A DNA stretch of 63,806 bases, the filler included, from Collodictyon triciliatum (taxonomy: Eukaryota): the NCBI GenBank assembly GCA_043381765.1. It is 6 parts of 6 records of this genome, joined end to end, with 100 filler letters (N's around TTAATTAATTAA, not from the genome) between each part and the next. Parts side by side here need not be neighbours in the genome. Positions count along the whole stretch, not along the records: positions 1 to 18,904 come from JBHJMP010001327.1; 5 more parts are not named here. One strand, written 5' to 3'. Under the pieces are notes generated by a model that was not told the origin of the DNA, did no database searches, and was given only the letters and a program-made list of their open reading frames with translations. The position numbers and the translations under genes are program-made. Below, piece after piece: positions 1,012-58,979 of this stretch (positions are counted from its first letter, which is position 1; each line of letters opens with the position of its first letter).

Positions 1012-1277
1012 GTTTGTTTGAATTTATATTGAATTTACATTCCAACTCACGCATCTTCAGTTTTTCTCTTTTTTTCNNNNNNNNNNNNNNNNNNNNNNNN
1101 NNNNNNNNNNNNNNNNNNNNNNNNNNNNNNNNNNNNNNNNNNNNNNNNNNNNNNNNNNNNTTTTTTCTTTTTTTCTTTTTTTCTTTTTCTTTTTGAAAAA
1201 AATTATGAGAATCATGCCCCATTATGTAATGTTATGATAAGTACCACCGCACCAATATCAATCTCTTTACAATCCAG

Positions 1278-2268
1278 TGAAGGGCCCAAATCGTCCTCTC
1301 GAACCGCGTCTGCTGCCACATCCACCTCGCCGGCCAACTCGAGCACAAAAAAGCCTGCAGCAGGACCTGTGCAAGCAACACCCGCCGTGGCCAATCTGTT
1401 GGACTTCTCCGACCCGGTTGCATCGGCACCCAAGGCGCAGAAACAGCCGCAGCAAGCACCCGAAGACTTCTTCGCTGCCGTTCAAACAAAACCGGCCAAT
1501 CAAGAAGCCTCATTCTTTGACCCGTTTGCGTCCCAACCGGCCCAGGCTCCCTCTGGTGCCTCGCTGGTCGATGAGTTTGCCAACTTGCGGGTTACCTCAT
1601 CAAATGCCCCGCAGGCATTCGATCCTTTTGGCCCATCAACATACACGCCGTTTTATATGCAACAACAGCAACAACAACAGCCGGACTTTTTTGCGAACAC
1701 AGGAAGCCAGTCATTTTCCTCTGCCCCCCTTGAAAAGGTATTATAGTATGTATCCTGTTAAAACCCTCCGACACGTCAATATTTTACACATAGAAGAAAA
1801 CGAATATGAATGAGCTTTATCAATTTTTTTTATTATGGATCATCCTAGTTTTTTAAATCAATTATCCATTTATCCATTTATTGTATTTCATCCCTCACAT
1901 TCCAAAATCTACCAACTGGGTGCCAGAAAAACGACGGGTTATCCACGCTGCTTAGCACACATGCAAATCTCGTGGACCTGACTCGCCTGGACTCGAAGAA
2001 AAGTCAGCCCACTACCTCAAGCACCCCATCTTCCTCAGTTACCATGTCTTTGTCAGGAAAGCCAATCAACACACAACCACCCATGGCCCAAGCGAATGCA
2101 TACAAAGCCCCAGCATCCACACAATCGTACCAATCCACATATAAGGGACCCGACCCATTCTCCACAATCGACCCGCTGAAGGCTAATCCCCAGCAAAACT
2201 CGGCTGCGCCGGCCTTCTTTGATCCATTTGCATCCAAGCCTTCTGGTGGTTTTGACCCGTTTGCATAA
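1278..2268 (+). CDS. 3' exons of a low-complexity endocytic-adaptor-like protein (epsin/ArfGAP-type tail); exons ~1278-1737 and 1927-2268
   Basis: Multiple DPF/FDPF motifs, LLDF clathrin-box-like motif, LVDL motif; in-frame phase-0 intron 1738-1926; TAA stop. Confidence 0.65.
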
Positions 2269-2500
2269 GAACCCTGACCAGTCGCATACCACGATCAAAT
2301 ACAAATGAATGATACATTCAAAATAATTTCTTTTTTCTTCCATCCACATGGCCTTCCTAGTTTTATTTTTTCATCCGAGTATGTGCTTCTTTGCTTTATT
2401 ATCCGCTTTTCCATTCAAAAGCATTCTTTTTCTCGCATGTGAACGCGATGCGATATTTGGAGGAAAGAAAGAAAGAACTCGATGAGAAAGCGCGGTGGTT

Positions 2501-4180
2501 TTATGGGATGTACTGTCTTTGGACGCTCGTGTTTGATGTAGCAGCTTGAAGGAATTCGTGTATCGCATCGTTGACAGCATGTGGTTTCTCTTCATGAATC
2601 ATGTGTGTCGTGGCTGGTAGGATGAGAAGCTGTGCTCTTTGAAAGGACCGCAGCATTCGGACAGTGTGCTCGATTCGGATGCACTCATCATCCCCAGCTA
2701 TCAAAAGTACCGGTTGTGTAATTTGTCTGATGTCCGCTTCAGTCCACCGCGGTTCGGTGGTCCAAAGCTGTTTGAGTTTCGGACAAACTTGTGTGATGAA
2801 ATAGGATGGGTCATTCCGCGGGTTTAATTGCCGCATCAACTGGAGAGGACCTGTGGTATTCAAGTATATCGAACATGTTTAAATTATGGTGGCTGGGTCA
2901 TATAGTAATCAATTTTTCTATTCGCCTACTGTTTCAAAGACAGGTGTGACGATAAAAAAAAACTTATATGGTCAGGAGTACTAGATACAATACCAAACTC
3001 TGAGTTTGCTCTTTTATTTATTTTATTTTTTTTTGGTTGTTCGTTGTTCGTTGTTTGTTTGTTTGTTTGTATGTTTGTTTGTATGTTTGTTTGATTTGCA
3101 TGTTTTGGATAAAAAAAAATTTTTTTAAAAAAAAGACAAACTATATCGACAGAATAACATTTCAAGGCCAAAGGTATATAATCGTGCTCATTAATAGAAA
3201 AAAGGAAAGAAAAACGAACGTGCCTCCTCCCAGTAGTTTAGTCCAATCACTCTCAGAGGAGCATTCTTGTAGCTCTTGCAGAAACTTGGGTTCCAACCCA
3301 TCCCTATGTCGGGTAAGACATCATGTTATTTTGCGCATATGTTGGCATGGAGAGGGATGGTGAGCAACGAGTCTAAAGTTTTTTTCTGTGCTACTGAAAA
3401 ACACTATGGTACATTACATTTTTTTTCATAGGCTCTTGAATATTATCTGAAAGAGAATGTAAAATCTTTATATTTATACCATTAGTCTATTATATAGGTG
3501 AATTATTGAATCGCATTGGGTATATGTATTGAGGAATCCACCTACGTATGAAAGTTTGCCCCTATCAAAACAAGAGACTTGCATAAACCAGCATTGTGCA
3601 TGGCTAAATGAATTCCAATAATAGCGCCATCGCTCCAGCCAATAACATGGACATGATTAATCTATTTGGGATTGAGGATGTTATTATAATACGTTTTCTT
3701 GATTATGAAGATCATGATTATTAGTTTACCAAGAAGGAGAAAAGTCAGCCGAAATAAATTTAATGTATGTGAGTGAATATAAAAAAGGACATTTTCAAAT
3801 TTATGATAGCTATATGCCTGTAGATAATGAAGTAGATTCGCTACATCCGCAGCAAGAACATCATAAGAGAATGGTACTGCCCTAGAGAAAAGAAAAGAAA
3901 AGAAAAGAAAAGAAAAGAGAGATAAATAATCGAACAACTCATCACATCACTTTTAGAGCACTGGCGTCAGGAGCCACAGGCCCAACCTCACATCATCGCT
4001 TCTACCATGCCCGCGAGTCTCATACGCTACAACGCGGAATGAGTGCCTCAGTCTATCGGCCATCAAAGAGAATGTGGCTATTGTGCTCCCGCCGCCATGG
4101 AGAAGTAGAACTGTCTCGCTGTGGTGGGTGCCGCTTTCCTCGTAGTAGACTCGCAATGGCCCGATCGATGCGTGTGGCAT
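2501..4180 (-). CDS. Alpha/beta-fold hydrolase (BPHL/valacyclovirase-like GWSDG), 5 exons
   Basis: LLLHGGG oxyanion motif, RGHGRS, HVIGWSDGA nucleophile elbow, LLIAGDDE and ATTHMI catalytic Asp/His; exons splice in frame, two probably via GC donors. Confidence 0.88.
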
Positions 4181-4688
4181 GTCTCCCTCAGCGATTCTAT
4201 TAGGCGCAATTCATACATGACTCCCCAGGTTGTGGCAACTTGTTCCAGGGCAAACCGCGCGTGCGAAACGCCAAAGCCAAGGCCAGGACTTGTGTGGCGG
4301 CTCCGCTATGTGCGCGCCCAACAGAAATGTAAGATTGCGGCAAGTGTGTGACAGTCCAAAAAAGAAAAGAAAAGAAAAGAAAAGAATTCTGGACAATCTG
4401 CATCAACCGCGAGGCTCTCAAACTCACAACAGCCTATTAAAATAAATGGCTTCCTTGACATTGCACAATCTACTATGCCAAAGATATTTATTTTATTTGG
4501 TTTGACTTTTATTCTGCGTCCAATGAAGTATCTTCCAGGAAAAAGCGAACCGGCCTGCCGGAAAAAAATATTTTTAAGGACTCAATTATTGATTGTTAAT
4601 TATAATTTGGAAATACTGGATACGCTTAAAAATAAATAGCTTCATTAATTAAGCTTAACTCACTTGATTTTGAAGAAATATCATCATC

Positions 4689-7600
4689 TTAATCATCACC
4701 ATTCTCATCATCATTCTCATCTTCATCGTCATCGTCATCTTCATTCTCATCTTCATTCTCATCTTCTTCATCTTCATCATCATCATCATCTTCATCTTCA
4801 TCATCATCATCATCATCGTCATCTTCATTCTCATCTTCATTCTCATCTTCATCATCATCGTCATCGTCATCGTCATCGTCTTCAGTAGCTTTCTCTCTCC
4901 ACTCTACAGCTTTCTCAATGTCAATCTCAACGCCCCATCCATTCTTAAAGCACTCAGCAACAGCAGCAACAGCCCGTGGATATTTGTACTCTTCTCCTGT
5001 CATTTTACCCAAACTATCCCTAACTGTCTGTTTCATTTCGGCCAGTTCTTTCAAAACATGGAAGGCCATCTTTGAACCTTGTTGTGCTACTCGTTTCAAC
5101 TCTTCGAAATCTAATGACAGTCTTGGAAATGCAATGTGTCTCCAGAGATGGGATCTTTTTGTGTCCTTTTCAACAATCCATCCGTTTTCATAGCACTCAG
5201 CCATCGTATGGGCCTGAAGCTTTGTAAACTGGCCTCGCTTGCAATGAGAAACAAAGTCTGAATCAATAGAAATAGCGCCGATTGAAATTAAAAGGGATTT
5301 GTTGAATTGACTCAATCCTTTGATATTTCTGATTCGAATACATCCACCTTCCAATTTTCTTGGACCGATAATCTGGGCTGTCTTCACATCTTGAATTTTA
5401 TTCGTATCCAACAAGTTTATCACATCGCTTGTTTGGTTGAATACTGCGATGACTTCACCTGGTTTATCTTTCTTGATGAGATATTTTCCTTGTTTGTATG
5501 TCAACTCTGAAGTTTCTAGTCTGTGTCTTTGTTTTCTGGTGGCCATATCCCAAATACATACTGTTTTATCATCACTTGCAGAGGCTAACCAACTCTCACC
5601 ATTCGGCCCTTGGACACTACAAAGGATGTTGACACTGGCTGTATGCCCTTTTAATTTTTTGATTTCGCTTTCGGCGTCTACATCCCAAATACGTATTGTT
5701 TTATCATCACTTGCGGAGGCTAACCAACTCTCACCATTCGGCCCTTGGACACTACAAACACTCATGATGCAGCTCATGTGACCATCTAGTATTTTGAGTT
5801 GCTCCCCTGAATCAACATCCCAAATGAATATGAGATTTTCTCCACTTCCACCACCCGAGGCTAACCAATTTTCTCCATTTGGTCCTTGAATACTGCAAAT
5901 ACACATGATATAACTCATATGTCCATCTAAAGTCTTGATTTCTTCTCCTGTGATTGTGTCCCAAATACGGATTGCATTATCAAAACCTCCAGAAGCCAAC
6001 AAATTTTCTCCATTCGGCCCTGTAAAACTGCAAAGACTAGTGACACCATCAGCGTGACCATCTAGTTTTTTGGTTTGGTTTCCTGTGGCAACATCCCAAA
6101 GACGTATTGTTTCATCTCCACCTCCAGAAGCCAGCCAGTGTTCTCCACTCGGTCCTTGGATACTACAAACACTAGTGAAATAATTTGTATGCCCCTCTAA
6201 TGTTTTGATTTGGTTTCTGGTGACTATATCCCAAATACGTATTGTTTTATCATTACTTCCAGAGGCCAACCAGTTCTCACCATTCGGCCCTTGGATACTG
6301 CAAACTCTTTTGGTGCATTGTGCGTGGCCCTGAAGCGTTTTGATATGATTTTTTGAGGTCATGTCCCAGATACGTATTGTCCCACAATTTTTGCTTGTAT
6401 AATGACCGTTACCGCTTCCAGAAGCCAGCCAGCTTTCACCATTCGGTCCCTGAATATTGCAAATACTACAGACTTCGTCTGTATGTCTTTCAAATATTTT
6501 AATTTGATTCCCTGTGGCTACATCCCAAAGACGTACAGTTTTATCTTCACTTCCAGAAGCCAACCAATTTTCACCATTCGGTCCTTGGACACTGCAAAGA
6601 CACTTAATTTTATTTGTATGGCCTTCTAATGAAGCTATATGTTCTCCTGTGTCTACGTCCCAAATACTTATTGTTTTATCTTCACTTCCAGAGGCCAACC
6701 AATTTTCACCATTCGGTCCTTGGACACTACAAACACACTCAATATTATTTTTATGTCCATCTAGTGTTTTGATCTGATTGCCTGTGGTTACATCCCATAT
6801 GTGTATTGTTTTTTCCTTGACCTTAAGCCCATGAGAAGAAGTGCCTCCAGAAGCTAACCAATTTTCACCGTTTGGTCCTTGAATACTACAAACACCTCTG
6901 ACACTAGCATTTCTATGGCCTTCTAATTTTTTGATTTGTTTTCCTGTGGCTATATCCCAAATACGTATTGTATTATCAGCACTTCCAGAAGCCAGCCACT
7001 GTTCATTACTCGGCCCTTGAATACTGCAAATACTATAAATAGCGCTTGTATGGCCTTTCATGATTTTGATTTGCTTTCCTGTGGCTAAATTCCAAATAAT
7101 TATTGTACTATCCAAACTTCCAGAAGCCAGCCAACGTTCTCCATTTGGTCCTTGAATACTACAAACACTTTTGATACCCTCAGTGTGGCCCTCCAATGTT
7201 TTGATTTGATTTTTTGTGGCTATGTCCCAGATGTGTAATTCGTTATCATCAATACCTCCATATACCAGCCAATTTTCACCATTTGGTCCTTGAATATTGC
7301 AGACACTGCTAATATATCTGGAATGACTTTCTAGCTTATAATGAGGAATTCCAAATTCAGATGTGTTCATATTTGTCTCATCAAAGATACAATCACCAAG
7401 CGCTGAATTTGTGAAATTAACGCCACTCAAGTCGGCACCAGTGAGATTGGCACCATCTAGTATTGCATTGCTGAGATTTGCATTCGGAATTTTAATCTTT
7501 GATAAGTCCATTCCACCAAATGAAACGTTCATGAAATTCAAAAGTGTGATTGCATTAGATGCAGCCTTTGATTTGCTCTCATCACTTTGCGACATGTACA

Positions 7601-10600
7601 CAATCCTGAATAATGATGCCATTATCTGCTCACGATTCCATTCTTCATCCAGTCTTGCATCATCGAGAGTTTCACTGATGAATTCTTTGACTCTTGTAAA
7701 CTCCGCGGGCTCCTTATTGATCTCTATTTTTTCTGCATAGTAAGATAGGTATTCGCATGAGTTTAATGTTCTGGGGTGAACCCATCCAAGTTTATCTACA
7801 AATCTGTTTCTCATATCAGTCCAGAATTCGATTGCCTCATCATATAGCTTATTTTCTTTGCAGTATCTATTTGCTGTCTCACATGCTACCGAGCAGTCCC
7901 AGTTTTCATAGGATGACTTCTCAGCATGTCTAACAGCAGCAGTCTTGTAAAGAAGAATGGTTACTTCATGCTCCATTTTTTCTTCTATCAGCTTTGCGAT
8001 TCTTGTGCATTGTGGACCGTCTTTCAACGAAAAAATTGTCTTTGTCTGATTCCTTGTAATTGTTGCCTTTTGAAAGCAATCAACGCACTGAGCAGAGCTA
8101 AATAAAGAGATTTAAATATTTTTTTTCTTTTTCGTGTTCATCTCTTGTATGAATGAACTTTTCAACACTGAATTGAATAAGGGGGAACGAATTAACTGTT
8201 TAATATTTCCTAATTAGCTAACCAATTACCTCTGTAGTTCAAAATTTGTTCTGCCAACATTCTCGAGGGATGTCGCATAATCCACATGTTTTTCTCCCAG
8301 TGTCCTCTTGCGAATATCGAGAGTCTTTGTGTATGCCTCCAACGCACTCTTAAAGCTAAAATTAAAATATCAAATTTGAATGTAGTATAGAAAAAAATGA
8401 GATATCAAAGTCTCTTCCAATAGGGCACTGCAGCATAGATATACAGTACTATTGATAAATGGATGCATTTGTATTTTTACTCTTTCAAATCATGGCAGAT
8501 GCCTCCAATAAGCTCATAGCAATTGACTACATTTGGATGATTTTCACCAAGTCCATAAATGTAAATATCCAGTGATTGCTTCAGTAAGGATAGGGCTTCA
8601 GTTTTCCTACATGGCATGATATATTTAATTATTTGAGATTTTGGCTCAAATTAAAAAATGGTCGAAAAGCCTTCGTTCTAACTTTCCACTGGCGAGATGA
8701 ACATTCGCGATAAACTGAATGGTTGAAGCAACAGATGCATGATTGGCTCCCAATGATTTCTCCATGATAGACTTTGCTTTTTCGTAGTTCTCAATAGACT
8801 CTTTGTACCTTGGGTATATAATCAATTGAGTCCATTCAAAGAATAAAAATAAAAAAAATAAAAAATATACCAAAGTTTAGATTTATCAAACAAATTACTT
8901 TTTCCCTGCCAGAGAGACATGGCCATAGTTCTGGTACGATGTTGCCACAAGAGGATGCTCGTTTCCAACTTTCTTTTGGCGGATTTCCATGGCCTTTGTG
9001 TATTCAGCCAAAGCTTGCTCAATCCTAGATATAAAAGCATTAGCATATTTGTCATATAGAGTGACTTGACCTGACTGAAACTTTAACTATCTGAACGATT
9101 ACCTTGATTGCTTCACATAGATATCACCGAAGCGGTCATACGACTGAGCTATTTGCAGGTCATTCTCACCCATCAGTTCAATTCTCAGGTTCAATGATTT
9201 CTTGTATTCGTCAAGAGCCTCATCAACCCTATAATTTAGATATTGGTTGAGTGTACATTCCTTTTTGTTGAATTAATTTTTTAAAATCTAGGATGCCTTT
9301 CTCCCTTACTTGTTTTGAAGCTGATATATGAATCCCATTTCCTCGTGAATCGTAGCAATTCTCAGGTTATTATATTCATTTGGTTCAATAGACTCCAGAC
9401 ATTTCTTGTAATGAACCATGGATTCGGTCCAACTGTTGGATTGTGCGTTTTAAAAAAGATATAAAATAGCTGATTATCACATTTTCATTCCTCTTTTTGG
9501 AATTATAATTAAATTTTATGATACTTTCTTCTTTATTTTTCTCTTATTAATTTTTATATTTTTTTTTTACTTTTGGAGGTTCTTGTATACACGGCCAAGA
9601 TTCAAGTAGTCAGCAGCTTTTGCATCTATAAATAAATTTTGATCATTTATACGTTCACTCATTCGTGGTTTTTTTTTGTATAAATATTTAGAGGGTGAAT
9701 AAAATACCTTCTCTTTGATGCTTTCCAAGGCGTATATTAATAACTGACAACAAAAACGAGTTCTCAAAAGATTCCAAGAAAAATTCAACTAATAAATCTC
9801 CCACCTTATTGGTAGCCTAAAATAGATATTTTCAGCGAGTTGTTTCCAATAATGTTACGTTACATGATAAAAAAAAATGCAAAAATAGAAAATTATATAC
9901 ATTCGCCAGAGTTCCATAAACTTCCTTGTAGTTCGCTGCTCCACTTGCGTTGATTGCTCTCCAGCATGTGAAAAATTCGTAGCGATAACGACCGCCAAGC
10001 ATGGTGCTGATTACCTATGAAAAATGAATTAGTGCATATTGACATAATACCTCATAAACAAAAAATACACCAGTCCTAATTTTTAGAACATAAAGACGTT
10101 TACGTGTGTTTGTTTCATATATTCGGCAAGCAAGTCGAATGAATTTCCTTTCAAGAGTTGGTAACATATCTCAGCGGCAAGCTCTTCATCTACATCAACA
10201 GCCTCGGAATACTGCCCAAACAACCATTTTCCGTATTTTTCATGTGATTTTACCATTTCTTGGTTTGTAGAGAAGTAGACTTTTTCGGTGGTCTCCAAAA
10301 GCAGTTGATGGAAGTACATGTATCTATTGAATCCTCAAATTAATAAGTTTTCTTTAAATTAACTAATATTCAGTTATTGTTTTCTTTAGAAAAAATATTT
10401 GAATTAACCTTCCATTTCGCACAAATAGTGACTCGATGAGAGTAAAGAAGAAAGATTTCCTGTGTTAATTGTTTAAAATTATTGATAAAAGAAACATCTG
10501 CAGCGTCAAGAAAAGATATGAAAATCCTATAGTTGAGGGAAATAATTGAACCATTCAGTCAGCTCGAATCTTGCGCCAATCATGTCTTTCATGTACTTGT

Positions 10601-13600
10601 CCAAGTCACTCTCACTCAAGCCGATGCGAGAAACAAAGAGAACCTTCATTGAAGTGGCAACATACTCGACGCCTGATAGTTATGTTGTAAGGATATCGAT
10701 GCACCGTAGGGGAAAAATAGAACAGAGAACAAAAGAATTAATAAATGAATTCATTAAACCCTTTACCTTCTCTATCGAACTTCAGTTTCCAGCGCCGAAT
10801 GATGAGAGTGTAAAGCTCAAGTACACCATTTGTTGAAAGTAGTGTGACCAATTCATCATCTAGTTTCTCATAAACACCGAAAACCCTGACCTCATCCAGA
10901 ACAATGCGGAGATAGAGGGGATGGTCTATATATGTTAGATGATAGGAGTTTAATTAAATGATGTTATATTGGCAGAAAAATGAATGTGTGATAGATTCTT
11001 TATTATGTCACTTGGCTCACCAGTGTCTTCCAGGTCGTGCAGAATCATTCCCACTTGCTTTTCGCTCAGAGTTTTGTCGTAGCGGGTTAGAAATGATTCA
11101 ACACCATCCTCTACCTCACCCTTGGTCAACTTGGCAACAGGAATCGGTTCCAATCCACTCTGTACAGCAACCTTTGGAAATCAATCATTTAATTGTGAGT
11201 TCAATCAAGTTTGTAAAACAAATTCTATGAAAATGTGAAGTTTAAAAGGAATATTTGGGGAAAAAACACTAGGTAATAAAGTACCTTGCAAGATTCATGG
11301 GTGTGAATGGTTGAAACAACGATAGTAACATTAGTTGGTGTTTCTTTGGGTAACCAAGTCAGCAAGTGCGGAGCTAGTGTTCCTTGTGACGGATGGATTT
11401 GATTGGTGATACCGATGAGAAAGACAAAGTTCTTGTCCCTAAAAAAAGAAAAGAAAAATTAGATGAATATGGTAATTAGATATAATAAGGTATAAAAATC
11501 TTCAAAAGCTATCATCTTGGTATGGATAATACGTGTTTCTTTCTTGAATCTCTTTAAGCAGGCCCTGGACTCCATCTTTTTCGTATTCTAGAAGTAAAAT
11601 TAAGAGCAACATAAGTCACTAATTTGATGATATTTGAATGTGCAAAATTCATAAAACGATAGAATAAAAATATAAAAATTCGTAGTCAATAGCACAGTTA
11701 CCAGCTCCCTGCTTCTTTTGCCCAATAAAATCAGCAGATTTTATCACTAAAGTCCAAAAGCGAGTCGAAATACTATAAAAAAAAATCATTAGGAAAATGT
11801 TGTACATAAAAAAAATAAAGCACTAATATTAAGTCAAGTGTATAAACCTTTCCACATAGTTGCTGAGGTTGGTGCACCCAACAAAATGGAAAAAGACATT
11901 CAGTCCAGGGTGATTCCTTCCTTCCAGGTCTCTCGCAGCAGCAGCCATGAGCGATGACTTTCCAATACCTGACTCGGCAGCAAGAATGATGATTTTGGAC
12001 TTGTCCACATTGAGCTGGTTCATAGCCTGATGTAAAAAAGAGCCAAATACAACCTTAACAAATCATTTTTAACATTTCTGTTGGTGAATTTCATTTTAAT
12101 TTACTTGCTCCGTGATTGTCCTTAGAAGCTCCTTTCTTCCACCAAACCCAGCGAGGCGATGCATCTTAAACTGGTGCTGCGCTTGGTCTTCAGGGTCTCT
12201 CACCTTTTTTTTATGTAATTTGTTAATTCTTATATAATCAATAAAGTCGATTAACAGCTACACAATAAATTGATGTCCAGTTTTACGATTTGATTCCCAA
12301 AGTCACGCTCGATGGCATAGGCGAGGTGGTAAGTCACAAAGTCCGAATACTCCTTCGCTCCTTTGTAGATAACATGCCCGAACTTGGCCTTGACTTTTCT
12401 CTTCAATTCATTCTGTCTTTTGCGCTGAAAAAAATTTGTAAAATAAACAAATAATTCAATTGGAATTCTTGCACAGTGCAATATTGATTGGTAAGAAATA
12501 TGTTTGTCATGTTTACAGCTTCTTCGCCTTCGGCTTGAAACAGATTCCTTTCTCCCTCGCTTTTTGCATGCTCGACAGCATATTGCTCATCACGAAGGTA
12601 AAAGAAGGCGCGGCTGCATGCTGGTTTCCCAATCAGACATGCATATTGAATCTAAGAAAGCATTTTGATTATTATAATAATTTTATTTTATATGTGCATA
12701 CTTGAAGCAGATATCGAAATATGTAGAATTATTTCACCTCATATTCAGTCACACTCAACCCAGGCATTTCATTGATGAAAGGGAAACGGCTATTGGTCTC
12801 ACTTCGCCATTCCACCCAAATATCCTCCATGGTAGCACCAGGCTTGGTTTTCATGAGTTCCTTGAGGCGACCTTGCTTGTTAAGCTCGGTTTTGTCTTGG
12901 TCAGGAACCCATCCATAACGCGCACCAAGGGAGCACACAAAGTATGGGCATTTTCCGATGGAATCCAGACAGCGAATCACAACCTGTGACAAAAATGAAT
13001 CTGAGGTGCTTTTGTTCTAGAGTACAAGGAAATTGACGCTATATAGGTTCTTTACAAATACTCTCAAAAATTACCCATCCTTCACTACTGTCTTCCGATG
13101 TCAGTCCCCAGCGCAAATCTATAAAGACAAGCTCTAATCCCTTCGATTTTGCAAGTCTCTTTAGTCTGTTTTTTTAGGTAATAATATTTAGCAAGGATTA
13201 TAGCCTTATCGAACCTTCAAAATACATGAACATATCAAATAGAAAATTATTTGGACTCACTCAGGGGCTCCGTTCTTGAAAAACTCGTCTCTTTCTTGCT
13301 GCATGTCGCGGAAAGTCGAAGAAAGAAAAACACGGATGACGCGCTCATCAAAGAAGACAAGCGGCAATGGTGTGGACGTCTCGTATCTTTGTGGGGCTGG
13401 ATTCCACTTCTTGTATTGCCTCTCCTTCAGGTCTTCACGAGCAAGCTTCATCTAATTAGAATGCAAAATTATTTGTCTTGATTGATCGAATTTTACATAA
13501 TTATGTAATAGTCGGCCTTATTATGTTATAGTACTACCTTGTCAAGAAGAATGCAAGTGCGAATGAGTACGACAGACCCTTTCTCGTCCAGGTCAAATCC

Positions 13601-13878
13601 TGTTAATGAAAAACCAATAATTAAAAATTAAAAAAATCGCCTTCGTTATAATACTGAATATTCCAATAGATATGAAAAATTGGAAGCAATTACGCCCTTA
13701 CCTTGAAACGGGAACGGGGCCTTCGCTCTTTCGTAGAGTGCCTTGGCAATTTCGTACCTCTCACGGCATTTTTTCTATAGTTGAACATTTTCATTTCTTT
13801 TCAATGAATTTCACTTTTCTTACATGAATTACTAGAGTTAAGAGAAGAAGAAAGAAAGAAGAAAGAAGAAAGAAGAAA

Positions 13879-13959
<81 letters not shown>

Positions 13960-14113
13960 AGGAGTTATTACACCCAAAGCTCCTAAGTGGTTCACACTTT
14001 TTCCGATAAGATACCAGATAATTCCATCGAGCAAATCTAGGGGAAGGGGTTCATCAGCAATTTCTAGAAATGTAAANNNNNNNNNNNNNNNNNNNNNNNN
14101 NNNNNNNNNNNNN

Positions 14114-14189
<76 letters not shown>

Positions 14190-14715
14190 CCATTATGGAA
14201 AGATTGACCATACCTGCATAATGGACTTGAGCATCAACAGCCTCAAACCCCACATTCAACTTCAGAAACCAATCAACAATGAGTTTTTGATTCTCTTCAA
14301 TAAGAACCTCTTCCTTGATGGCTTTATCGCTGGTAGGAATAAATGATTAATTACCAATCAAAGAAAAAATAAAGAAAGTTGAAAATTATCAAATTATCAA
14401 AATAGTAGTTAAAATCTTACGCAAACAAGCGGGAATGGTAGCTTCCCAAGGACTTCCCGGTGACCATTTCAATCAGCATGGTCAAAAAGAACCCGTCCAC
14501 AAAGTCGTTATGGATGTTCATCGCCTTGAGCTCAATTTTTTCCAGGTGATAGTTCACCCACTCGAGGACAGCCTGCGCTCAGTATTTGACTTTAGTAATC
14601 AAATACTTTCAATTGATAAAACTTTTTAAAAAATGAACATGTTTATATGTAGTCATACTTGGTCAATGGTGACCATGCTAGTGTTGGTCTCGGTGCTTGT
14701 TTTGGTTGCAGACAT
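4689..14715 (-). CDS. NLR-like STAND protein: CH domain - DUF4062-like - P-loop NTPase - TPRs - pentapeptide - 13 WD40 - Sel1-like - acidic tail (~31 exons)
   Basis: Spliced by hand from the ATG at 14715: AVLEWVNYHL..FVDGFFL..LIEMVTGK (CH); RVFLSSTFRDMQQER..DLRWG..LGARYGW (DUF4062/TEP1-type); AAESGIGKSS (Walker A); HPLYLRIVLDEVRVFG; kinesin-light-chain-type TPRs. Last TPR exon (ends 8230, phase 2) joins the acceptor at 8097 in frame with the 1112-aa ORF. One junction near 9630-9760 is unresolved. Confidence 0.82.
4692..4882 (-). repeat. Coding (GAT/GAA/GAG/AAT) repeat encoding a ~60-aa D/E/N acidic tail
   Basis: Visible triplet repeat in frame at the end of the 1112-aa ORF. Confidence 0.9.
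5545..7335 (-). repeat. 13 highly similar WD40 repeats, ~135-bp unit
   Basis: Recurrent GHxxxI/VxxV/ICSI/VQGPNGExWLASGxxDxTIRIWD with obvious nucleotide-level similarity. Confidence 0.95.
13845..13960. repeat. Intronic (AAAG)n microsatellite
   Basis: Visible. Confidence 0.9.
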
Positions 14716-18650: not shown

Positions 18651-18948
18651 CCGTGCTTCGCTGTGGGGCGAGAGGTGCGGTACTAGCATTATATTTGTAG
18701 GTGCTATCATGAAAATATGTACCGTATATACGAGTCGAATTTAATTTTATATTCCAGATTTGGTGAATATTCCTGCTGAGCGTGAGCCTGCCATCACCCA
18801 ACAAGATTCGCCTTTGCTTCAGATTTGCGAGGGAAAAAAAAGAGAAACACACCACACCATTGAGAAAAGACTTTATTTTTGGCAGACAACTAAGGTTACT
18901 AAGANNNNNNNNNNNNNNNNNNNNNNNNNNNNNNNNNNNNNNNNNNNN

Positions 18949-18960
18949 TTAATTAATTAA
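18949..18960. other. Artificial contig linker TTAATTAATTAA (six-frame stops) between N runs
   Basis: The identical 12-mer flanked by N runs occurs five times in the window. Confidence 0.97.
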
Positions 18961-19020
18961 NNNNNNNNNNNNNNNNNNNNNNNNNNNNNNNNNNNNNNNN
19001 NNNNTTATTTTTTTTATAAT

Positions 19021-37853: not shown

Positions 37854-37897
37854 NNNNNNNNNNNNNNNNNNNNNNNNNNNNNNNNNNNNNNNNNNNN

Positions 37898-37909
37898 TTA
37901 ATTAATTAA
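37898..37909. other. Artificial contig linker
   Basis: TTAATTAATTAA between N runs. Confidence 0.97.
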
Positions 37910-37953
37910 NNNNNNNNNNNNNNNNNNNNNNNNNNNNNNNNNNNNNNNNNNNN

Positions 37954-47608: not shown

Positions 47609-50600
47609 TTACAAGCGGGCAATAAACTTGCGCAGCTTTTCAAGACGCTGCGTGTCTTTGGCCAGCTCTTTCTTAAAGACAGCCACCTCTTCCATCACAA
47701 TCTGACGGGCTTCTTGGTCCCCACGGTCGGCTGCATTCGTGAACAAGTCCAAAGCCTTTGCAACGTCCCTGGAGACTCCTTCGCCATTGAAAAACCGCAG
47801 GCCCAAACCACACAGCGCCGCCGGATATTGCTGTTTGGCTGCGGCCTGGTACCACCTGACGCAAAGCTCCATACTCCGCTCCACGTGCAGGCCGTTTCGA
47901 TAGCAAAAACCAATCATGTACTGAGCCGACGCCAATCCACGCTTGGCCAGTTGTTCCACCAAGCGGAAGGCAAAGCGACTTCCACGCTCCACAAGAACAC
48001 TCAGCGCGTGTGATGCCTCCTCCAAATCTGCGTCCCACCCACGCCAATCGAGAACGGACCCGGCGTGGTACCACAGTATTCCGAGTGGATGGCCTGGGAC
48101 ACACAGCTCATGAAACAAGCCCATCACCTCGGCCTCCAGTTTTGCTTTAGACTCTGTGACAAACTTGGACTCTCCCTCCGACTGTGGGTGTGACTCGGTG
48201 GTTAGAATCAAGGTCAGGATTCCTAGGGCTGCCATGTTTCCGTCACGCGCATAGTTGAGCATCACTCGGGCAGCTTCGTATGGATTCTTTGGCCCGAAGC
48301 CACATCCTGTGCAACACGCCCACGCGTACACTGCTATGAAGGCGAGTCTCTGGCTCTTGGCCATCTCGAAAAAATGCACGGTGGCTGGTGTGTATTGGTG
48401 TTGGGCGGCAGTTCGCAGAAGGCCTCCAATGTCTCCGGCCTTGACAAACCAATAAACTGCCTCTGTAAAATCACCCTTAGTGATTAGTGTTTGTCCGTAG
48501 TATCGGGCCTGTTCTGGTCGACACCAAGCCGCTTCTTTCATGTCCTTGTATAGATCAGCCATGGGTGGTGTCGGCATTTCCACAACATCGTCGCTTACCG
48601 CTCCTGAGCGGTACAATAATCTCTGCGCGTCTGGAGAAATGACTGTAGCTGAGTTCATCTTGGCCAACGAGCATCTGAATCGTCGTTTTCCAGAAAATTG
48701 ATGAACGATTTTGGGAACAGGGATATCTATGCGCAGGCCAGGAACAGGGAACCCAACTTCTGTCTGGGGATCAACATACAAGGCGGGCGCCGAGCCTCGG
48801 ATTTGGTCGATTCCGCAGTCAAGAACAGTTATCACACCATCAGACCCTCCTACAGCCATCCACAGATTCCCTGAATTCCAAAATGTCAGCGAAAGACACC
48901 TCAGCTCGCTCTGAAAGGGTCCTATTCGCTGGACTTCGTGCCCTGAAACCATGTCCCACCACCGTGCAGTCCGATCTTTACTGCATGATACAAGAAAGAC
49001 AGCCTCTGAGTGGAACCGAAACCATGACAACTTACTAACATCATGTGCGTGAGTTTCGCAGATAAAGTAAATAACTCCGGTGTAAATGTCCCAAACACGG
49101 ATGGTGTTGTCTTGACTCGCTGATGCTACAAGGTACTCGCCATCGGGGCCTCTAAGACTGATCACATCGAGGATGACATCGCTATGCCCGATGAAAATCC
49201 GAACCTCCTCACCAGAGTATATATCCCATAGGCGAACTGTTTCATCCTGGGTTCCAGTTGCGAGCCACAGAGCGTCCTGCTCACCTTTTACAAAGCTCAT
49301 GCACAAAATATTCGATTTATTGCCAACCACGGTTGACTGTAGAATATGGCCATCTTTTGCGTCCCATACATAAAACAACCCATCGAGTCCGCCCGTTGCA
49401 ACCAGTGTATGTCCATCCCAAGTTCTTTCAGAACAAACTGATTTAACTTCGTCTGTATGGTCATGTTTTTCCATTATTACCCGATAGTCTTGAAGCCGAA
49501 ACATACGAACCAATCCATCGTTGTAAGACACAGCTAGACATCTGTCATCTTCTTGGTTGAATTCTACCACGCACACAGCCAGGGGTTTCCGTTGATCTCT
49601 ATGCATCCAAGCTAAAGTTCCGTTATGAAGGCTCCATATGCGAACAGTAGAGTCATCCCCACAGCTCACCATTAAATTGTGTTTTCCCTCGCTATCCTTC
49701 CATGGGATGAAAAGCACGCAGTTGACCGGTCCTATGTGTCCGATATTCGATTCAAAATGGAGCTGATTGGAGAATGAATGGAACTGAACTTCTCCAGATA
49801 TCCCAGCGCAGGCAAAATAAGGTGTATTCTTCATCAATACTGGGTCTGACAATGACGATACACCGTCTTCCTGCACATGAAAGACATTTTTGCACTTTGC
49901 TGATGACCACTCCCACTCACGAACAGTGCCATCCTCGCTTGCTGATAACACGACAAGTTCACCTAGGGCATTTGCAATCACCTTCACACAGACTACATCC
50001 TTTGTGTGGCCATAAAAAATGCGCTCATCTTTTTGGTTTTGTACATTCCATGAGCGTACAGCTCCATCGCCACTTCCAGAAAATACAAGAAAGGTATTCG
50101 TATGATATTCTACTATACAATCCAAAGTGCGAATTTCATCATAATGTCCCCGAAACACACATACCTCGCGCAACATTGTTAAATCCCAGATTCGGACGGT
50201 TCGATCGCTCCCTCCTGAGGCCACAAAAATATGTTTTTCAGGGCTCATCCAAACTGACAAAGCAAGAACAGCACCCAAGTGGCCTTTCAGAGTTCCCTTA
50301 ATTTTCAGAGAAAATGGGTCGACAACTTGAATAAGCCCATCCTCACCAGCGGAGACTATGATCGGTGATTGAGGAAGTAAGCGAACTGTTTCAACAGCTC
50401 GGATGGCGCCTTGATGCACATCAATGATTATCGATGGTTGCCGCTCGTGATCTCTCCAAACACTCACAGTGCCCTCTTCAGAGCCGATGGTGACAGACAA
50501 CAAATGTTTCTCCTCGTCGACAGATTTTTTTGGCAATGACAGGCTTCCGATTGTTATATTAGTTGCCTGTGTTGCAACACCAGTTTTCATTTCATAAACT

Positions 50601-53600
50601 ATAGATGAATCACCTAAATCCCATACCGATATCACGCCGTCTGTAGAAACACATATCAGGCGATCGTGTTCTGAGATGTGGCTATATAGTTTTAAGGTCA
50701 AGATTCGGCGAGGCGGCTGACTGTATAAAGGGGAAAGAAGACCGAAATCGATTCCCTCCATGTTTGCGTTACAAAAATTGGACTCTGTTATCCCAACGCA
50801 ATTCATGAGGCAGTTTCTGAGGTCTGCTTGCCTGAAATCAGAGCCTTCAAATAATCCATTCGACAGGTCTGCACCCTGAATTCGAACCCCCTTTAGGTCT
50901 TGCCCAGAAAAACTGACTCCAGCCAGGTTGAGGATTGTTATTGCTTCAGATCCATAGTTTGAATTACTTGACATACTCTTGGAATCATGCACAGTGGACA
51001 TCAATTGTTCTCTGTAGGCCAGGTCAACCGATGCTCTGGAAATAAGCCTTGATAAGTGATGTCGGCGCTTGTAGAAAGCCTTCATGTGGGTATTTGCTTC
51101 TTTCATCTGCTTATTCCACGTTCGAGTGACAGATTTTCGATTCGAGTATATTGGCCTATTACAAGATATTGGGCGGGCCAAAGGCAGTAACATCTCATGA
51201 GACAAAGTTTCACATTCATCTAAAAAGTAATGGTATAATACTTTGTGTGTAAATTCGTAGCAATCCTTGCTCGTTTCTGTTACAAAAGATAGGCGACGAA
51301 TCCAAGTGGACGATGCATCTAACCCAGTAAGAATGGAGAGAATCTCATCGTGGGCACTATTGCTATCATCTGATGGCAAAGGGAGAACAAGCGATTTGCC
51401 ATTCATACTCTTAATTGTTTTGGCTAATGCTGCACAAAATCTAAATGTACCGGATACTATGTCCGTATCCGACTCTTTTTTGAGCATATGGTACGATTCA
51501 CAATCAATTTCTTTACTCAAGGTATCCTCTAAGTAGACTTTCAGTATATTGCAGAGTTTTTGGTTACGATTTGTGTTCTCAGGCGACGAAAGTGCTGTTT
51601 TAGAATAAATTTCAGGGTATTGGTTCGCGAACACTCTAAGAAATTCTGGACAAAAAGACAGTGATTGGAGTTGGTGAAGTTGATCCAAGCTTTGTTCATA
51701 TTCATCAACGGAATTCCATCCTTTTCTCTGCTCAGTAATTTCTCTCTTTCCATTCTTGCACTCGATATATGTAGAAAAAAACGACAGTCTCTGCTCACGG
51801 GTAAATGATGACAGTTGAAAGAACGGTACATCATCGATTAGATTGCCATTCAGCTTCGCAAGAGATGCTTTTATTTTTTGTATTTGATTCCAATTCTCTG
51901 ACCTAGATAGTAAAACTAACTGTGTATTCCACCCATCGATGTGCTCTGATAATTGTTCCATGATATGGTTTTGATTATGCTCATCACATTGGTCCATAAT
52001 GATGATAAACCGCCAGCTTTCCTTCTTCATGAGGCTGATCTGAGCATCAGAGAATGGCATGGAATAATTAAAATCGCCATTTTTGGGGCTTTCTCGAAGG
52101 AGATAATCCATCATGTTTACTTTTTTTGGGACAGAAGATATAGACGTGTATAGTGGGATGGCTCTGGTGGTCGGATAAATATTCCAAAGATTTTTTAGCA
52201 GGGAATGCGCTAGAATTGTTTTTCCAGCACCTCTTGAGCCAATTATAAGAAAGTAGCGGTTTTGAGAATCTTGCAAAGAAGTTGACAGAAATTCTTGCGC
52301 GTCATAAATCTTTTGCGTTTCTGGACTGTACATGTCTAGAGGAATATATGTTTCAAGAAGTGAGTGAAAGTAACGGCTGTATATCGGATGCGTGGCCATG
52401 TCGGCTATGATTTGTTCGACAGTCTCCTTTTGAAATCCGCTGCGATCAAACAGATTGTTTCTGGGTTCATCAACGGGTTTGGTCTCTCTTACAACCATCA
52501 TATGTTGAATTGACCGGGCCTTATTTTGCAAATTCTTGTGTTGGAAGTATTTTTTTGAAGACAACACATCTAGAGTCTCCCATAGATGTCTTTTTTCTGC
52601 TGACTTTTTGGACCACTCGAATAAATGCCAAATAGAGTCGCAAATATGGTGAGCTAGTATCACGGGGACATGATTATCTAGTATTTTCTCAATAAAAATC
52701 AATACTGAAGATGGCTGAATTCGAAGGTAAAGACGGATTGAAAACAGACTGATATACCACATGCGCCTACGAGTTGAGTCACTATGATTTCTCAAAAGAC
52801 TGCTAATCATGGCATCTATAGTACATATTGACTTTTCATCAAGTGGTTGATTGTAAGTCAAGGATTTATCGTTAAAAATCACGCCGACATAAGACAAAAT
52901 TGATTGAAATAAGCCAACATCACTGGTCAGGTAGAAAAGACTCTGCAGGAAAAATTCTCGCCTACATTTGAGCTGAAATAACTCTGGTGGATCTACTTCC
53001 ACACTACTTTCATTTAAGATTGAGTTTCTCCATGCAAACTGCACCTGGTTTTGTATTGTTTCTAGTTTATCATGAGGAACATGGAAATCTCCATGAGTGG
53101 CTAGATGGAACAGAATATTCGAGCTTGTTATCAAAATTGATTTTTCATCAGAGCTATCATCAGCTAATACCGATGGGGTTGATGCAAAGAGGGCCAGGGT
53201 GATGTCTCTCTGGACAGATGGTGATATGAAGCCAAAACTAGCATTTTGAAGGATGTATAGAACCAAGCCCCATAACTTGGTAGAAGACACAGAATTCGTC
53301 CTTATTTTGCTTACCAAGGAGCTCAGGAGAAAATTCAGTACATCATCGTGCTTTATATGCGCTATCTGACTCAGTTCATCCAACATATCTTCTGACATGT
53401 TCATTTCGCAGCTAGCGATGAACAAACAACGGAGCACACGGCGGAGGGTGACCTCGAATTTTTCTTGATTTGATTCGTATGATGGTAGGATATTGACTAA
53501 ATCGGCTATGGATTTCATCTCACTCGGCTCCTTGATTACGTGAGTGACCGAATCCCTGAAATTTGGAGATGCAGGGCGGCTAATCATGCATTGTGGGAGG

Positions 53601-54205
53601 TTTTCTGTTGGTTGGGGGCCGACTTTTGTGGACTGATTTTTGTCTTGCGTGGCTTGTATGGCACTCTTTGATGCGGGCTGTATTAGCTCTGCATTACTCT
53701 TTGAGGAACCCTCGTCGCCTGTGCTCTGGGTAATCGGGACTACTTGCGATTTTCTTGAACGATTTTTGCTGGCTCCACATCCACCTCCCAATAGAACCAC
53801 CCGATGTGAAAAAGAAGCCTCGAGTTTGCATTCCCCTTCTGCCACATTGCGAATAATCGCTCCTATATGATATCCATCGTCTGAATGTTTTTGGCTCTCG
53901 TAGCGGTGCATTTTCTTTGGTTGTGCCGTAGCAAGAATATCAAAAAGGCTGATTCCCGAACTCAAAATAATCTGTGTGACCGGAGAGAAGTGTTGGAGTT
54001 GAGAGCTCTGGAAACTTTCTTCAGAAAATAGTGGCTCTGCAAAAAAAGCCACATGTGTGGTGCCATGCATTCCTTCTGTTTGTTTTGGTGATAAACTATT
54101 GTAGTTTTCGATAACATATAATCTATGTGACTCGCAGTGGACATTGACAGGGATTGCGGTAGGGATATTTGGAGCGTGCTTAGGACAATATATTGCTGAC
54201 TCCAT
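47609..54205 (-). CDS. NACHT - pentapeptide - WD40 - Sel1-like repeat protein (NLR-like), 2198-aa uninterrupted ORF
   Basis: ETYIPL pre-NACHT motif, Walker A FLIIGSRGAGKT, Walker B FIIIMDQCDE, YEFTHKVLYHYF, AITILN..FSGQDLKGVRIQGADLS pentapeptides, multiple GH..WD repeats, Sel1 repeats (AQYMIGFCYRNG; ALCGLGLRFFNGEGV). Confidence 0.93.
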   Translation of the reverse strand: MESAIYCPKHAPNIPTAIPVNVHCESHRLYVIENYNSLSPKQTEGMHGTTHVAFFAEPLFSEESFQSSQLQHFSPVTQIILSSGISLFDILATAQPKKMHRYESQKHSDDGYHIGAIIRNVAEGECKLEASFSHRVVLLGGGCGASKNRSRKSQVVPITQSTGDEGSSKSNAELIQPASKSAIQATQDKNQSTKVGPQPTENLPQCMISRPASPNFRDSVTHVIKEPSEMKSIADLVNILPSYESNQEKFEVTLRRVLRCLFIASCEMNMSEDMLDELSQIAHIKHDDVLNFLLSSLVSKIRTNSVSSTKLWGLVLYILQNASFGFISPSVQRDITLALFASTPSVLADDSSDEKSILITSSNILFHLATHGDFHVPHDKLETIQNQVQFAWRNSILNESSVEVDPPELFQLKCRREFFLQSLFYLTSDVGLFQSILSYVGVIFNDKSLTYNQPLDEKSICTIDAMISSLLRNHSDSTRRRMWYISLFSIRLYLRIQPSSVLIFIEKILDNHVPVILAHHICDSIWHLFEWSKKSAEKRHLWETLDVLSSKKYFQHKNLQNKARSIQHMMVVRETKPVDEPRNNLFDRSGFQKETVEQIIADMATHPIYSRYFHSLLETYIPLDMYSPETQKIYDAQEFLSTSLQDSQNRYFLIIGSRGAGKTILAHSLLKNLWNIYPTTRAIPLYTSISSVPKKVNMMDYLLRESPKNGDFNYSMPFSDAQISLMKKESWRFIIIMDQCDEHNQNHIMEQLSEHIDGWNTQLVLLSRSENWNQIQKIKASLAKLNGNLIDDVPFFQLSSFTREQRLSFFSTYIECKNGKREITEQRKGWNSVDEYEQSLDQLHQLQSLSFCPEFLRVFANQYPEIYSKTALSSPENTNRNQKLCNILKVYLEDTLSKEIDCESYHMLKKESDTDIVSGTFRFCAALAKTIKSMNGKSLVLPLPSDDSNSAHDEILSILTGLDASSTWIRRLSFVTETSKDCYEFTHKVLYHYFLDECETLSHEMLLPLARPISCNRPIYSNRKSVTRTWNKQMKEANTHMKAFYKRRHHLSRLISRASVDLAYREQLMSTVHDSKSMSSNSNYGSEAITILNLAGVSFSGQDLKGVRIQGADLSNGLFEGSDFRQADLRNCLMNCVGITESNFCNANMEGIDFGLLSPLYSQPPRRILTLKLYSHISEHDRLICVSTDGVISVWDLGDSSIVYEMKTGVATQATNITIGSLSLPKKSVDEEKHLLSVTIGSEEGTVSVWRDHERQPSIIIDVHQGAIRAVETVRLLPQSPIIVSAGEDGLIQVVDPFSLKIKGTLKGHLGAVLALSVWMSPEKHIFVASGGSDRTVRIWDLTMLREVCVFRGHYDEIRTLDCIVEYHTNTFLVFSGSGDGAVRSWNVQNQKDERIFYGHTKDVVCVKVIANALGELVVLSASEDGTVREWEWSSAKCKNVFHVQEDGVSSLSDPVLMKNTPYFACAGISGEVQFHSFSNQLHFESNIGHIGPVNCVLFIPWKDSEGKHNLMVSCGDDSTVRIWSLHNGTLAWMHRDQRKPLAVCVVEFNQEDDRCLAVSYNDGLVRMFRLQDYRVIMEKHDHTDEVKSVCSERTWDGHTLVATGGLDGLFYVWDAKDGHILQSTVVGNKSNILCMSFVKGEQDALWLATGTQDETVRLWDIYSGEEVRIFIGHSDVILDVISLRGPDGEYLVASASQDNTIRVWDIYTGVIYFICETHAHDVSKLSWFRFHSEAVFLVSCSKDRTARWWDMVSGHEVQRIGPFQSELRCLSLTFWNSGNLWMAVGGSDGVITVLDCGIDQIRGSAPALYVDPQTEVGFPVPGLRIDIPVPKIVHQFSGKRRFRCSLAKMNSATVISPDAQRLLYRSGAVSDDVVEMPTPPMADLYKDMKEAAWCRPEQARYYGQTLITKGDFTEAVYWFVKAGDIGGLLRTAAQHQYTPATVHFFEMAKSQRLAFIAVYAWACCTGCGFGPKNPYEAARVMLNYARDGNMAALGILTLILTTESHPQSEGESKFVTESKAKLEAEVMGLFHELCVPGHPLGILWYHAGSVLDWRGWDADLEEASHALSVLVERGSRFAFRLVEQLAKRGLASAQYMIGFCYRNGLHVERSMELCVRWYQAAAKQQYPAALCGLGLRFFNGEGVSRDVAKALDLFTNAADRGDQEARQIVMEEVAVFKKELAKDTQRLEKLRKFIARL

Positions 54206-54724
54206 ATCCTTCGTCTCTGTTGCGCCCTAATACGAGAGTTTTGGATCAGAGCACAACAGATTTTTGCACTTTCTTTGTTTTGATTTTGCTTTGTTTTTGC
54301 TTTGTTTTTGTATTTTTGTTTTGTTTTGTTCTTGTTCTTTTGCTTTGTTTTTGTATTGTGTCCTGATGCTTGTATTTTGTCCTGATGCTTGTGTTTTGCT
54401 TTGTGCTTTGTTTTTGCTTCTTTTTTTTGTTTTTTTGCTTTAACGGATATACGGTATATAAGGTAGCTTTGTCTACATGTGGAAAAGGGCAGAAGACATC
54501 ACTTGAGCCAGATCTACAAGAACGCAAGAGAAGCGTGAGTTTGTGGCGATTGATTCGCAGATATGTCGCTCCCACTCCCGCGCCCTTCTTTTTTTTGCGA
54601 CGGAATGCTTGGAGAGTTCATTACACAGCGCATAATCACGCATTCGTTTAAAGAAACTGTGATATTGTGTATGTCCATCATTTCATGCCGTTTATTTTTC
54701 ATTATATGGGCGTATTTCGTGAGT

Positions 54725-56849: not shown

Positions 56850-56861
56850 TTAATTAATTAA
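56850..56861. other. Artificial contig linker
   Basis: TTAATTAATTAA between N runs. Confidence 0.97.
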
Positions 56862-56905
56862 NNNNNNNNNNNNNNNNNNNNNNNNNNNNNNNNNNNNNNN
56901 NNNNN

Positions 56906-58879: not shown

Positions 58880-58979
58880 GTAAGTGATATATATGTATAT
58901 CCCCCCCCCCCCCCCCCCCCCCCCTCCTTTTTTTTNNNNNNNNNNNNNNNNNNNNNNNNNNNNNNNNNNNNNNNNNNNN

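Follow-up and report, generated by a model that had tools for sequence, protein, structure and literature searches.

A probable NLR-like gene of Collodictyon triciliatum with stacked TPR, pentapeptide and WD40 repeats behind a DUF4062–NTPase core

DUF4062, since renamed NIR, is presented in the accessible portions of two bioRxiv preprints (10.64898/2026.05.01.722283 and 10.64898/2026.09.04.749371) as a TIR-like NADase domain used in phage defence, where it is the effector in bacterial systems, an Avs2 among them. The same portions report that human TEP1 is active as an NADase via glutamate E1008, and that most eukaryotic DUF4062 members in a EukProt survey are NOD-like receptor (NLR)-like proteins with the domain at the N terminus. 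Here, we describe a gene on the minus strand of a 63,806-nt stretch of DNA from Collodictyon triciliatum (assembly GCA_043381765.1; six parts of six records joined end to end, hereafter the window) that places such a domain before a P-loop NTPase and three classes of repeats. We consider it probable that this is a single gene for an NLR-like protein of the STAND type (signal transduction ATPases that have numerous domains), which combines an NADase effector with a composite repeat sensor and which arose by old domain shuffling.

Gene structure and domain order

The hand-built, script-checked model runs on the minus strand from an ATG at 14715 to a stop codon at 4689–4691 (14715..4689) and comprises 31 exons with a 7053-nt coding sequence (CDS), which encodes 2350 residues with no internal stop; all 30 introns are GT..AG and measure 75 to 197 nt. 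From N to C terminus, the protein contains a CH domain, DUF4062, a NACHT-like P-loop NTPase, KLC-type tetratricopeptide repeats (TPRs), a pentapeptide region, 13 WD40 blades, a Sel1-like region and an acidic tail. A first-pass annotation of the same DNA had proposed one polypeptide in which a DUF4062-NTPase unit is followed by arrays of TPRs and WD40 repeats, with a WD40 open reading frame (ORF) that lacks an ATG start and forms the last of about 31 exons, and the spliced model agrees with it on each of these points. The long ORF (8111..4689, minus strand; P0001) has 1140 codons from stop to stop with its first ATG only at codon 46 (~7976), and the 1112 residues of the earlier description correspond to the same frame counted from a TTG at 8027–8025 (codon 29). 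The junction read earlier, with donor CAG AG/GTAATT at 8230/8229 and acceptor TTTAG/C TCT at 8098/8097, both in phase 2 and in frame, is the one used by the model. Exons 26 to 30 are each 126 nt long and in phase 2, which corresponds to one 42-residue TPR per exon; the exon structure then changes abruptly, with 30 introns interrupting 3.6 kb of CDS and the 3.4 kb of exon 31 having none.

The composite order is carried on one mRNA in several paralogues of Diphylleia rotans, whose proteins are ORFs from the EukProt (EP00002) Trinity/TransDecoder transcriptome. Alignment of the spliced model with D. rotans P0092 by BLASTP gives a single high-scoring segment pair (model residues 18–2142, P0092 residues 187–2366) with 46.6% identity over 2223 columns that spans all 30 splice junctions of the gene model. 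In a joint alignment, the exon 30/31 column is crossed gap-free by five D. rotans transcript proteins. The features of the gene, with the evidence for each, are as follows.

4689..14715, minus strand: whole gene; exon coordinates, phases and GT..AG borders, colinear with P0092, P0110 and P0112.
14659..14715, minus strand: exon 1 with the proposed ATG (19 residues; putative 5' end); gene model.
13972..14572, minus strand: CH domain, exons 2–4; Pfam, P0092 and PDB matches.
12517..13451, minus strand: DUF4062 (NIR, TIR-like NADase) domain, exons 7–10; Pfam, P0092 and PDB 11gz_A.
12738..12755, minus strand: S-V-T-E-Y-E (residues 355–360), candidate catalytic glutamate(s) of DUF4062; alignment of family members.
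9708..12203, minus strand: STAND P-loop NTPase and helical/winged-helix region, exons 12–23; Pfam and identity to paralogues.
11955..11978, minus strand: Walker A, A-E-S-G-I-G-K-S (residues 501–508); identical in P0092 and P0110.
11399..11419, minus strand: Walker B position, L-I-G-I-T-N-Q (residues 593–599); alignment and DNA read.
8230..9625, minus strand: KLC-type TPR array, exons 24–30; Pfam TPR_12 and our own profile.
8098..8229, minus strand: intron 30 (132 nt, GT..AG, phase 2); DNA read and gene model.
7695..8097, minus strand: TPR-like helical hairpins that appear to continue the solenoid (residues 1215–1349), start of exon 31; AlphaFold2, fold matches and phmmer.
7347..7694, minus strand: shared cassette head with helices, A-I-T-L-L-N motif and pentapeptide beta-helix (residues ~1350–1465); Pfam, family profile and BLASTP.
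5547..7358, minus strand: 13 WD40 blades with a period of 45 residues/135 nt; Pfam WD40 E 9.2e-97 and TRF.
4887..5546, minus strand: post-propeller region with Sel1-like repeat; Pfam Sel1 29.0 bits (cut-off 30.7).
4689..4886, minus strand: acidic tail of 65 residues, 88% of them D/E, with the stop codon; translation.

Exon-by-exon Pfam scores are low, since the pieces are short. The CH domain reaches E 2.5e-4 in exon 2, under the cut-off, and 43 bits, above it, at residues 191–277 of P0092; the region also matches alpha-actinin CH chains in the PDB. DUF4062 (PF13271) scores 21.3 bits in exon 7 and 23.2 bits in exon 9 (cut-off 24.7), and passes the cut-off with 42.5 bits in P0092 (residues 1–1103), which is 73% identical to the gene there. 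The solved DUF4062 domain of TEP1 (PDB 11gz_A) matches P0092 with an E-value of 3.7e-14. The domain lies N-terminal to the NTPase, the position that characterizes DUF4062 (NIR)–STAND NLR-like proteins, and the S-V-T-E-Y-E motif is present in all four family members that cover the site, being identical in P0092. In the NTPase, exon 13 matches NPHP3_N, AAA_16 and NACHT at E 1e-3 to 3e-3 (NPHP3_N, PF24883, 19.6 bits; cut-off 24.8), while the TPR-only D. rotans protein P0111 scores 29.3 bits with NPHP3_N. The Walker A motif of the STAND class is intact, with G-I-G-K-S at residues 504–508.

The repeat region begins with TPRs; of six TPR exons searched with Pfam, five match TPR_12 (E 4e-5 to 4e-7). 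A hidden Markov model (HMM) of our own, derived from six exon-sized units, finds six units and no seventh in exon 31, where units are degenerate. An AlphaFold2 model of window positions 7350–8096 (mean local confidence pLDDT 90.9, predicted template-modelling score pTM 0.83) contains six paired helices up to residue 123 followed by a beta-helix. The best fold matches of the exon 31 start are the TPR domains of KLC1 and KLC2, weak ones (E 3e-3 to 3e-2, TM ~0.3), whereas the rest of the model is matched by cyanobacterial pentapeptide proteins. Residues 66–119 of exon 31 also give weak phmmer matches to TPR_12-rich proteins. With E-values this weak, the model suggests that exon 31 opens with ~135 residues that are part of the upstream TPR-like solenoid, an assignment that rests on the fold model and the weak phmmer matches.

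Downstream, exon 31 matches Pfam Pentapeptide (E 3.9e-10) and then enters the WD40 region, which TRF resolves with a period of 135 and 71–77% matches. The 13 blades share a mean pairwise identity of 56% (range 36–71%), with variation at sites that follow G-H and at sites of the G-S-x-D loop, and probably form two propellers. The post-propeller region is conserved in the D. rotans homologues. TPR_12, Pentapeptide, WD40 and Sel1-like matches together make up the superstructure-forming repeats at the C terminus that are typical of the DUF4062-STAND group. A PADLOC search (2023 version) matched one repeat model and one TPR model and none of its defence families.

Relatives in Diphylleia rotans and other carriers of the cassette

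A HMMER scan of 1.84 billion representative sequences with residues 1–200 of exon 31 returned only 12 proteins at E ≤ 1e-3. The best three of these 12, P0092 (2619 residues), P0093 (2520 residues) and P0094 (1219 residues), are matched deep inside long proteins, and each contains TPR_12 and WD40. Querying with the core of P0092 brought in P0111 and two further D. rotans proteins that have the composite set of domains, P0110 (2401 residues) and P0112 (1849 residues, partial); P0110 aligns to the model over residues 20–2197 and P0112 over 611–2200, with P0111 aligning only over 202–1119. TPRs, linker, pentapeptide region and WD40 blades are thus found in one ORF in P0092, P0110, P0112, P0094 and P0093, and D. 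rotans has at least six paralogues overall. Since several Diphylleia transcripts have the same design, the gene is, as judged from their sequences, no one-off chimera but a member of an established family. Metagenome scans with the linker and with exon 9 as queries gave 187 and 175 pattern matches, respectively, none of which was confirmed.

Two of these relatives depart from the others. P0111 (2314 residues) contains DUF4062, NPHP3_N and TPRs to about residue 1090, followed by ~1200 residues with no Pfam match at E ≤ 1e-5, so that a different C-terminal half replaces the pentapeptide-WD40 cassette. In P0093, the linker before the pentapeptide region is duplicated (a ~210-residue insertion past the junction) and a very long WD region carries low-complexity inserts; its ORF lacks the NTPase, so that P0093 is either a transcript cut short or a paralogue that consists of the sensor only.

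Identity between the gene and its D. rotans relatives is 63–73% in DUF4062, 36–49% in the TPRs and 25–50% in the WD region. The NTPase is 53–72% identical to that of members with the composite tail and about 38–40% identical to that of TPR-only P0111. A conserved effector joined to a fast-changing sensor would fit the pattern of receptor families, of which such traits are described for fungal NLRs in the accessible part of PMC4986451.

The distal part of the repeat region occurs in other proteins, one of which is encoded in the window.

47609..54226, minus strand: comparator P0091, a single intronless ORF of 2205 codons with NACHT-like NTPase, pentapeptide, WD40 and Sel1 parts.

In P0091, the NACHT-like NTPase (residues 655–821) falls just under the Pfam cut-offs, Sel1 repeats are clear (67 bits) and ~640 N-terminal residues are without a Pfam match. 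By Atlas features, its NTPase-pentapeptide part lies closest to bacterial clusters, most of them cyanobacterial, which we take as a lead only and not as a claim of gene transfer. Exon 31 and P0091 share 26% identity over 759 columns (BLASTP, E 9e-65), beginning at residue 130 of P0001. A protein search with residues 1–270 of P0001 yielded 89 matches among 965 candidates, mostly bacterial pentapeptide proteins, of which P0070 and P0084 are informative; P0084 joins a kinase to pentapeptide and WD40 parts. P0070 (2354 residues; a cluster of six from Logan and ENA contigs of 10–54 kb) contains NACHT at 568–717, pentapeptide at 986–1020, WD40 at 1036–1209 and an LRR_6 array to about residue 2000; it too is a STAND protein that combines two classes of repeat, and its cassette head is that of the gene described here. 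The composite-family profile finds P0091, P0070 and P0084 with E-values of 2e-22 to 1.5e-20 (in a search of five sequences), and its matches start at model residues ~1350 (P0091), ~1369 (P0084) and ~1381 (P0070), which corresponds to window positions ~7694–7600. Upstream of model residue ~1340 we found no similarity to the P0091 type; the TPRs intervene before the cassette.

The recurrence of one cassette (helix, pentapeptide, WD40) behind differing N-terminal modules is, at the level of sequence, good evidence of domain shuffling. The fusion predates the split from Diphylleia, because the composite order is common to five D. rotans transcripts, and the event is old, because identity to P0091 is low and the composite form is present in D. 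rotans. The family would then have arisen by old domain shuffling before that split and diversified mainly in its sensor part. As a yardstick from the same window, an ORF at 20747–23317 (plus strand; 856 codons) with PH and oxysterol-binding (OSBP) domains has as its best match a D. rotans protein with 59% identity (E 8.5e-137), against 43–46% for animal OSBPL3. This match places the source organism, a freshwater protist, near Diphylleia, with D. rotans as the closest relative sampled.

Proposed role and alternative explanations

If Apaf-1, TEP1 and bacterial Avs proteins are taken as analogues, the composite repeat region would keep the NTPase closed and bind one or more ligands. Ligand binding would trigger nucleotide-dependent oligomerisation, the oligomer would bring the N-terminal DUF4062 domains together and so turn on NAD+ hydrolysis, and this hydrolysis could serve as a cell-death or stress signal. 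A role as an innate immune receptor would follow from the same analogy.

Several observations weigh against this reading. The 19-residue exon 1 has no counterpart in the homologues in the alignment to P0092; the homologues carry ~165 extra N-terminal residues relative to the gene model, and a tblastn search with the P0092 N terminus found no upstream CH exon. The S-V-T-E-Y-E of P0092 pairs with S-V-T-E-M-E in the TEP1 chain, although only in a weak second stretch (i-E 58), and the NTPase of P0092 scores just under each cut-off (NACHT 25.3, nSTAND1 24.5 and NPHP3_N 23.1 bits). The Walker B aspartate is present in all three D. rotans paralogues that cover the position (P0092, P0110 and P0111; V/I-D-A-V-N-Q), whereas the gene has a glycine there and also differs at the two following residues, the remaining NTPase being well conserved. 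In this respect the gene departs from the DUF4062-STAND group and is possibly an inactive or diverged copy; it may bind nucleotide without hydrolysis, or it may be drifting. According to the accessible portions of the 2026 bioRxiv preprints, purified human NWD1, NWD2 and NPHP3, which are DUF4062 carriers, are inactive as NADases in vitro, so a catalytic role of the domain here is not assured. The CH domain and the kinship with NPHP3 would also suit a cytoskeletal or ciliary scaffold without an immune role. Finally, none of the 15 contig joints listed, 26 more lying outside the listing, spans 8230/8097, at a low depth that makes this result uninformative either way.

Several introns of the model are bridged by contigs of runs X2 and X4, which are guessed to be RNA though their kind is not recorded: 13451/13538 and 12203/12288 in both runs, and 12981(+2)/13073 in X2. 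The joints at 13451/13538 and 12981(+2)/13073 have CT..AC ends, which are GT..AG on the minus strand, while the joint at 12203/12288 has CT..CG ends with one letter between its sides. These contigs are 90–95% like the window and, because they differ from it by 5–10%, show the intron positions of close relatives or paralogues and not expression of the gene studied. None of the five sequencing runs that contain window sequence is listed as RNA, and the shares are small (0.06–0.13). The gene contains a single run of N, at 14077–14113 within intron 3; there is no N from 1161 to 14076, so the exon 30/31 junction is not an assembly join. A T run of >80 bases in intron 3 (14114–14200) adjoins this gap and intron 4 (13843–13970) contains a long CTTT-type microsatellite, the two being likely causes of the gap. 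The joins of the window itself (18905–19004, 37854–37953, 56806–56905, 58936–59035 and 61217–61316) are identical, each with 44 N, a 12-base six-frame-stop spacer and 44 N, and none of the five lies inside the gene. An automatic splice-chain model with 29 exons translated intron sequence, with stretches of poly-F and N, and was discarded.

Two alternatives concern the exon 30/31 boundary. If intron 30 were retained, the donor GTAA would give an immediate stop, and one could propose a DUF4062-NTPase-TPR gene that ends in the TAA at 8229–8227, followed by a separate pentapeptide-WD40-Sel1 gene that starts from the ATG 45 codons into the long ORF; that no contig joins 8230 to 8097 would be compatible with such a pair. 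We regard two genes as extremely unlikely, given that splice sites and phase are intact at this junction, that the 45 codons before the ATG and the 135 residues past the acceptor are conserved in five D. rotans transcripts that read through, that the start of exon 31 folds as an extension of the TPR solenoid and that only ~250 nt would remain for a terminator and a promoter. The boundary could alternatively be the seam of a recent graft special to this gene, by which an intronless NACHT-pentapeptide-WD40 piece was joined to an intron-rich TPR gene. The abrupt loss of introns at exon 31, the presence of the intronless family member P0091 33 kb away along the joined stretch (whose parts need not be neighbours in the genome) and the cassette seen by both BLASTP and the family profile favour this idea. 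Yet the similarity to P0091 is low and begins ~135 residues into exon 31, the window has long ORFs without introns in other places too, and the fused order in five D. rotans transcripts, at 36–47% identity, is thus older than the divergence of the two organisms (OSBP ORF, 59%). A recent graft is therefore very improbable. The first-pass annotation had placed the graft near ~7640 and read the change in exon structure as its trace. The shared cassette and its start stand (~7694–7600), but the seam is not the intron, as the first part of exon 31 appears TPR-like, and the graft does not coincide with the change in exon structure. Nor is the fusion special to this gene; its recurrence in five D. 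rotans Trinity genes is an outcome fixed beforehand as weakening that view.

The third alternative accepts the single gene and gives its product a different role, that of a constitutive cytoskeletal or flagellar scaffold comparable to NPHP3 in cilia, with a catalytically silent DUF4062. It draws on the N-terminal CH domain, on the nearest named relatives beyond Diphylleia being nephrocystin-3-like proteins and TEP1 (~25% identity), on the reported inactivity of NPHP3, NWD1 and NWD2 and on the lost Walker B. What argues against a scaffold is the retention of the glutamate motif in every covering family member, the number of D. rotans paralogues with their fast-changing repeats and conserved effector, and the WD blades, which are homogenised with variable surface positions; the accessible part of PMC4986451 describes these traits for the receptor families of fungal NLRs. 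On balance, we consider the scaffold unlikely and retain the NLR-like receptor with composite sensor as the preferred reading.

A broader idea is offered tentatively and is rather doubtful: diphylleids may exchange whole sensor cassettes among unrelated STAND receptors, such that an NPHP3-type TPR NADase receptor captured the cassette of an intronless, bacteria-like NACHT family that still has a member in the same genome, with the Walker-B-less copy as a non-hydrolysing sensor or helper. If so, a receptor that stacks three sensor folds would have been created and the family would then have radiated, in a protist parallel to the paired and integrated-domain NLRs of plants that is built on an NAD+-depleting effector.

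Comparison with known systems

The gene and its Diphylleia relatives provide a concrete and well-supported example of a DUF4062 NLR-like protein from CRuMs, a eukaryotic branch that is deep and has been little studied. Its sensor is unusual in stacking TPRs, pentapeptide and WD40, with the distal cassette common to other receptor-like genes, and is a usable case for sensor-module swapping in NLR-like receptors beyond animals, plants and fungi. The kind of system is not new, and proteins of this composite make-up are already present, undescribed, in a public transcriptome. Full-text literature searches gave no description of the architecture, and the supplementary tables of the preprints may list such proteins.

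The working model of effector, STAND NTPase, repeat sensor and ligand-triggered oligomerisation is that of Apaf-1 and of bacterial Avs2 with DUF4062, as far as the accessible sources describe them, but these have one repeat class each and none of the searches made indicated kinship. Fungal NLRs of the NWD/HET-E type likewise have WD blades that are unusually alike within one protein and differ at few positions. In the accessible part of PMC4986451, however, the repeats of the high-conservation class are ~85% identical, as compared with 56% here, and the effector domains differ.

Among eukaryotic proteins with the same core, TEP1 has DUF4062 beside a NACHT-type NTPase followed by WD40 propellers, and vertebrate TEP1 is ~25% identical over the core. 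Unlike the gene, TEP1 lacks TPR, pentapeptide, Sel1 and CH parts; conversely, no TROVE domain was matched in the exon translations or in residues 1–1103 of P0092, which have CH instead. Nephrocystin-3-like proteins (DUF4062, NPHP3_N/NACHT, TPR_12) resemble the gene in the core, at ~25% identity, and in a KLC-type TPR array (P0113 aligns to model residues 221–921 at 27%), and D. rotans P0111 has the same TPR-only Pfam set. They lack the pentapeptide-WD40 cassette, whereas the gene continues for ~1000 residues after its TPRs and so is not of the TPR-only type. The earlier premise that each family has one repeat type is a loose one: in TEP1 the DUF4062-NACHT core is accompanied by WD40, in NPHP3-like proteins by TPRs. 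The NACHT-pentapeptide-WD40 proteins P0091 and P0070 share the A-I-T-L-L-N helix, the pentapeptide region and WD40 (and P0091 also Sel1) but have another NTPase, no DUF4062 match and no TPRs.

The D. rotans proteins P0092, P0110, P0112, P0094 and P0093 differ from the gene in the ~165 extra N-terminal residues of P0092, in blade number, in the duplicated linker of P0093 and in keeping the Walker B aspartate wherever it is covered. They nonetheless have the same domain order and are colinear with the gene over up to 2200 residues at 36–47% identity, including the junction of TPRs and pentapeptide region.

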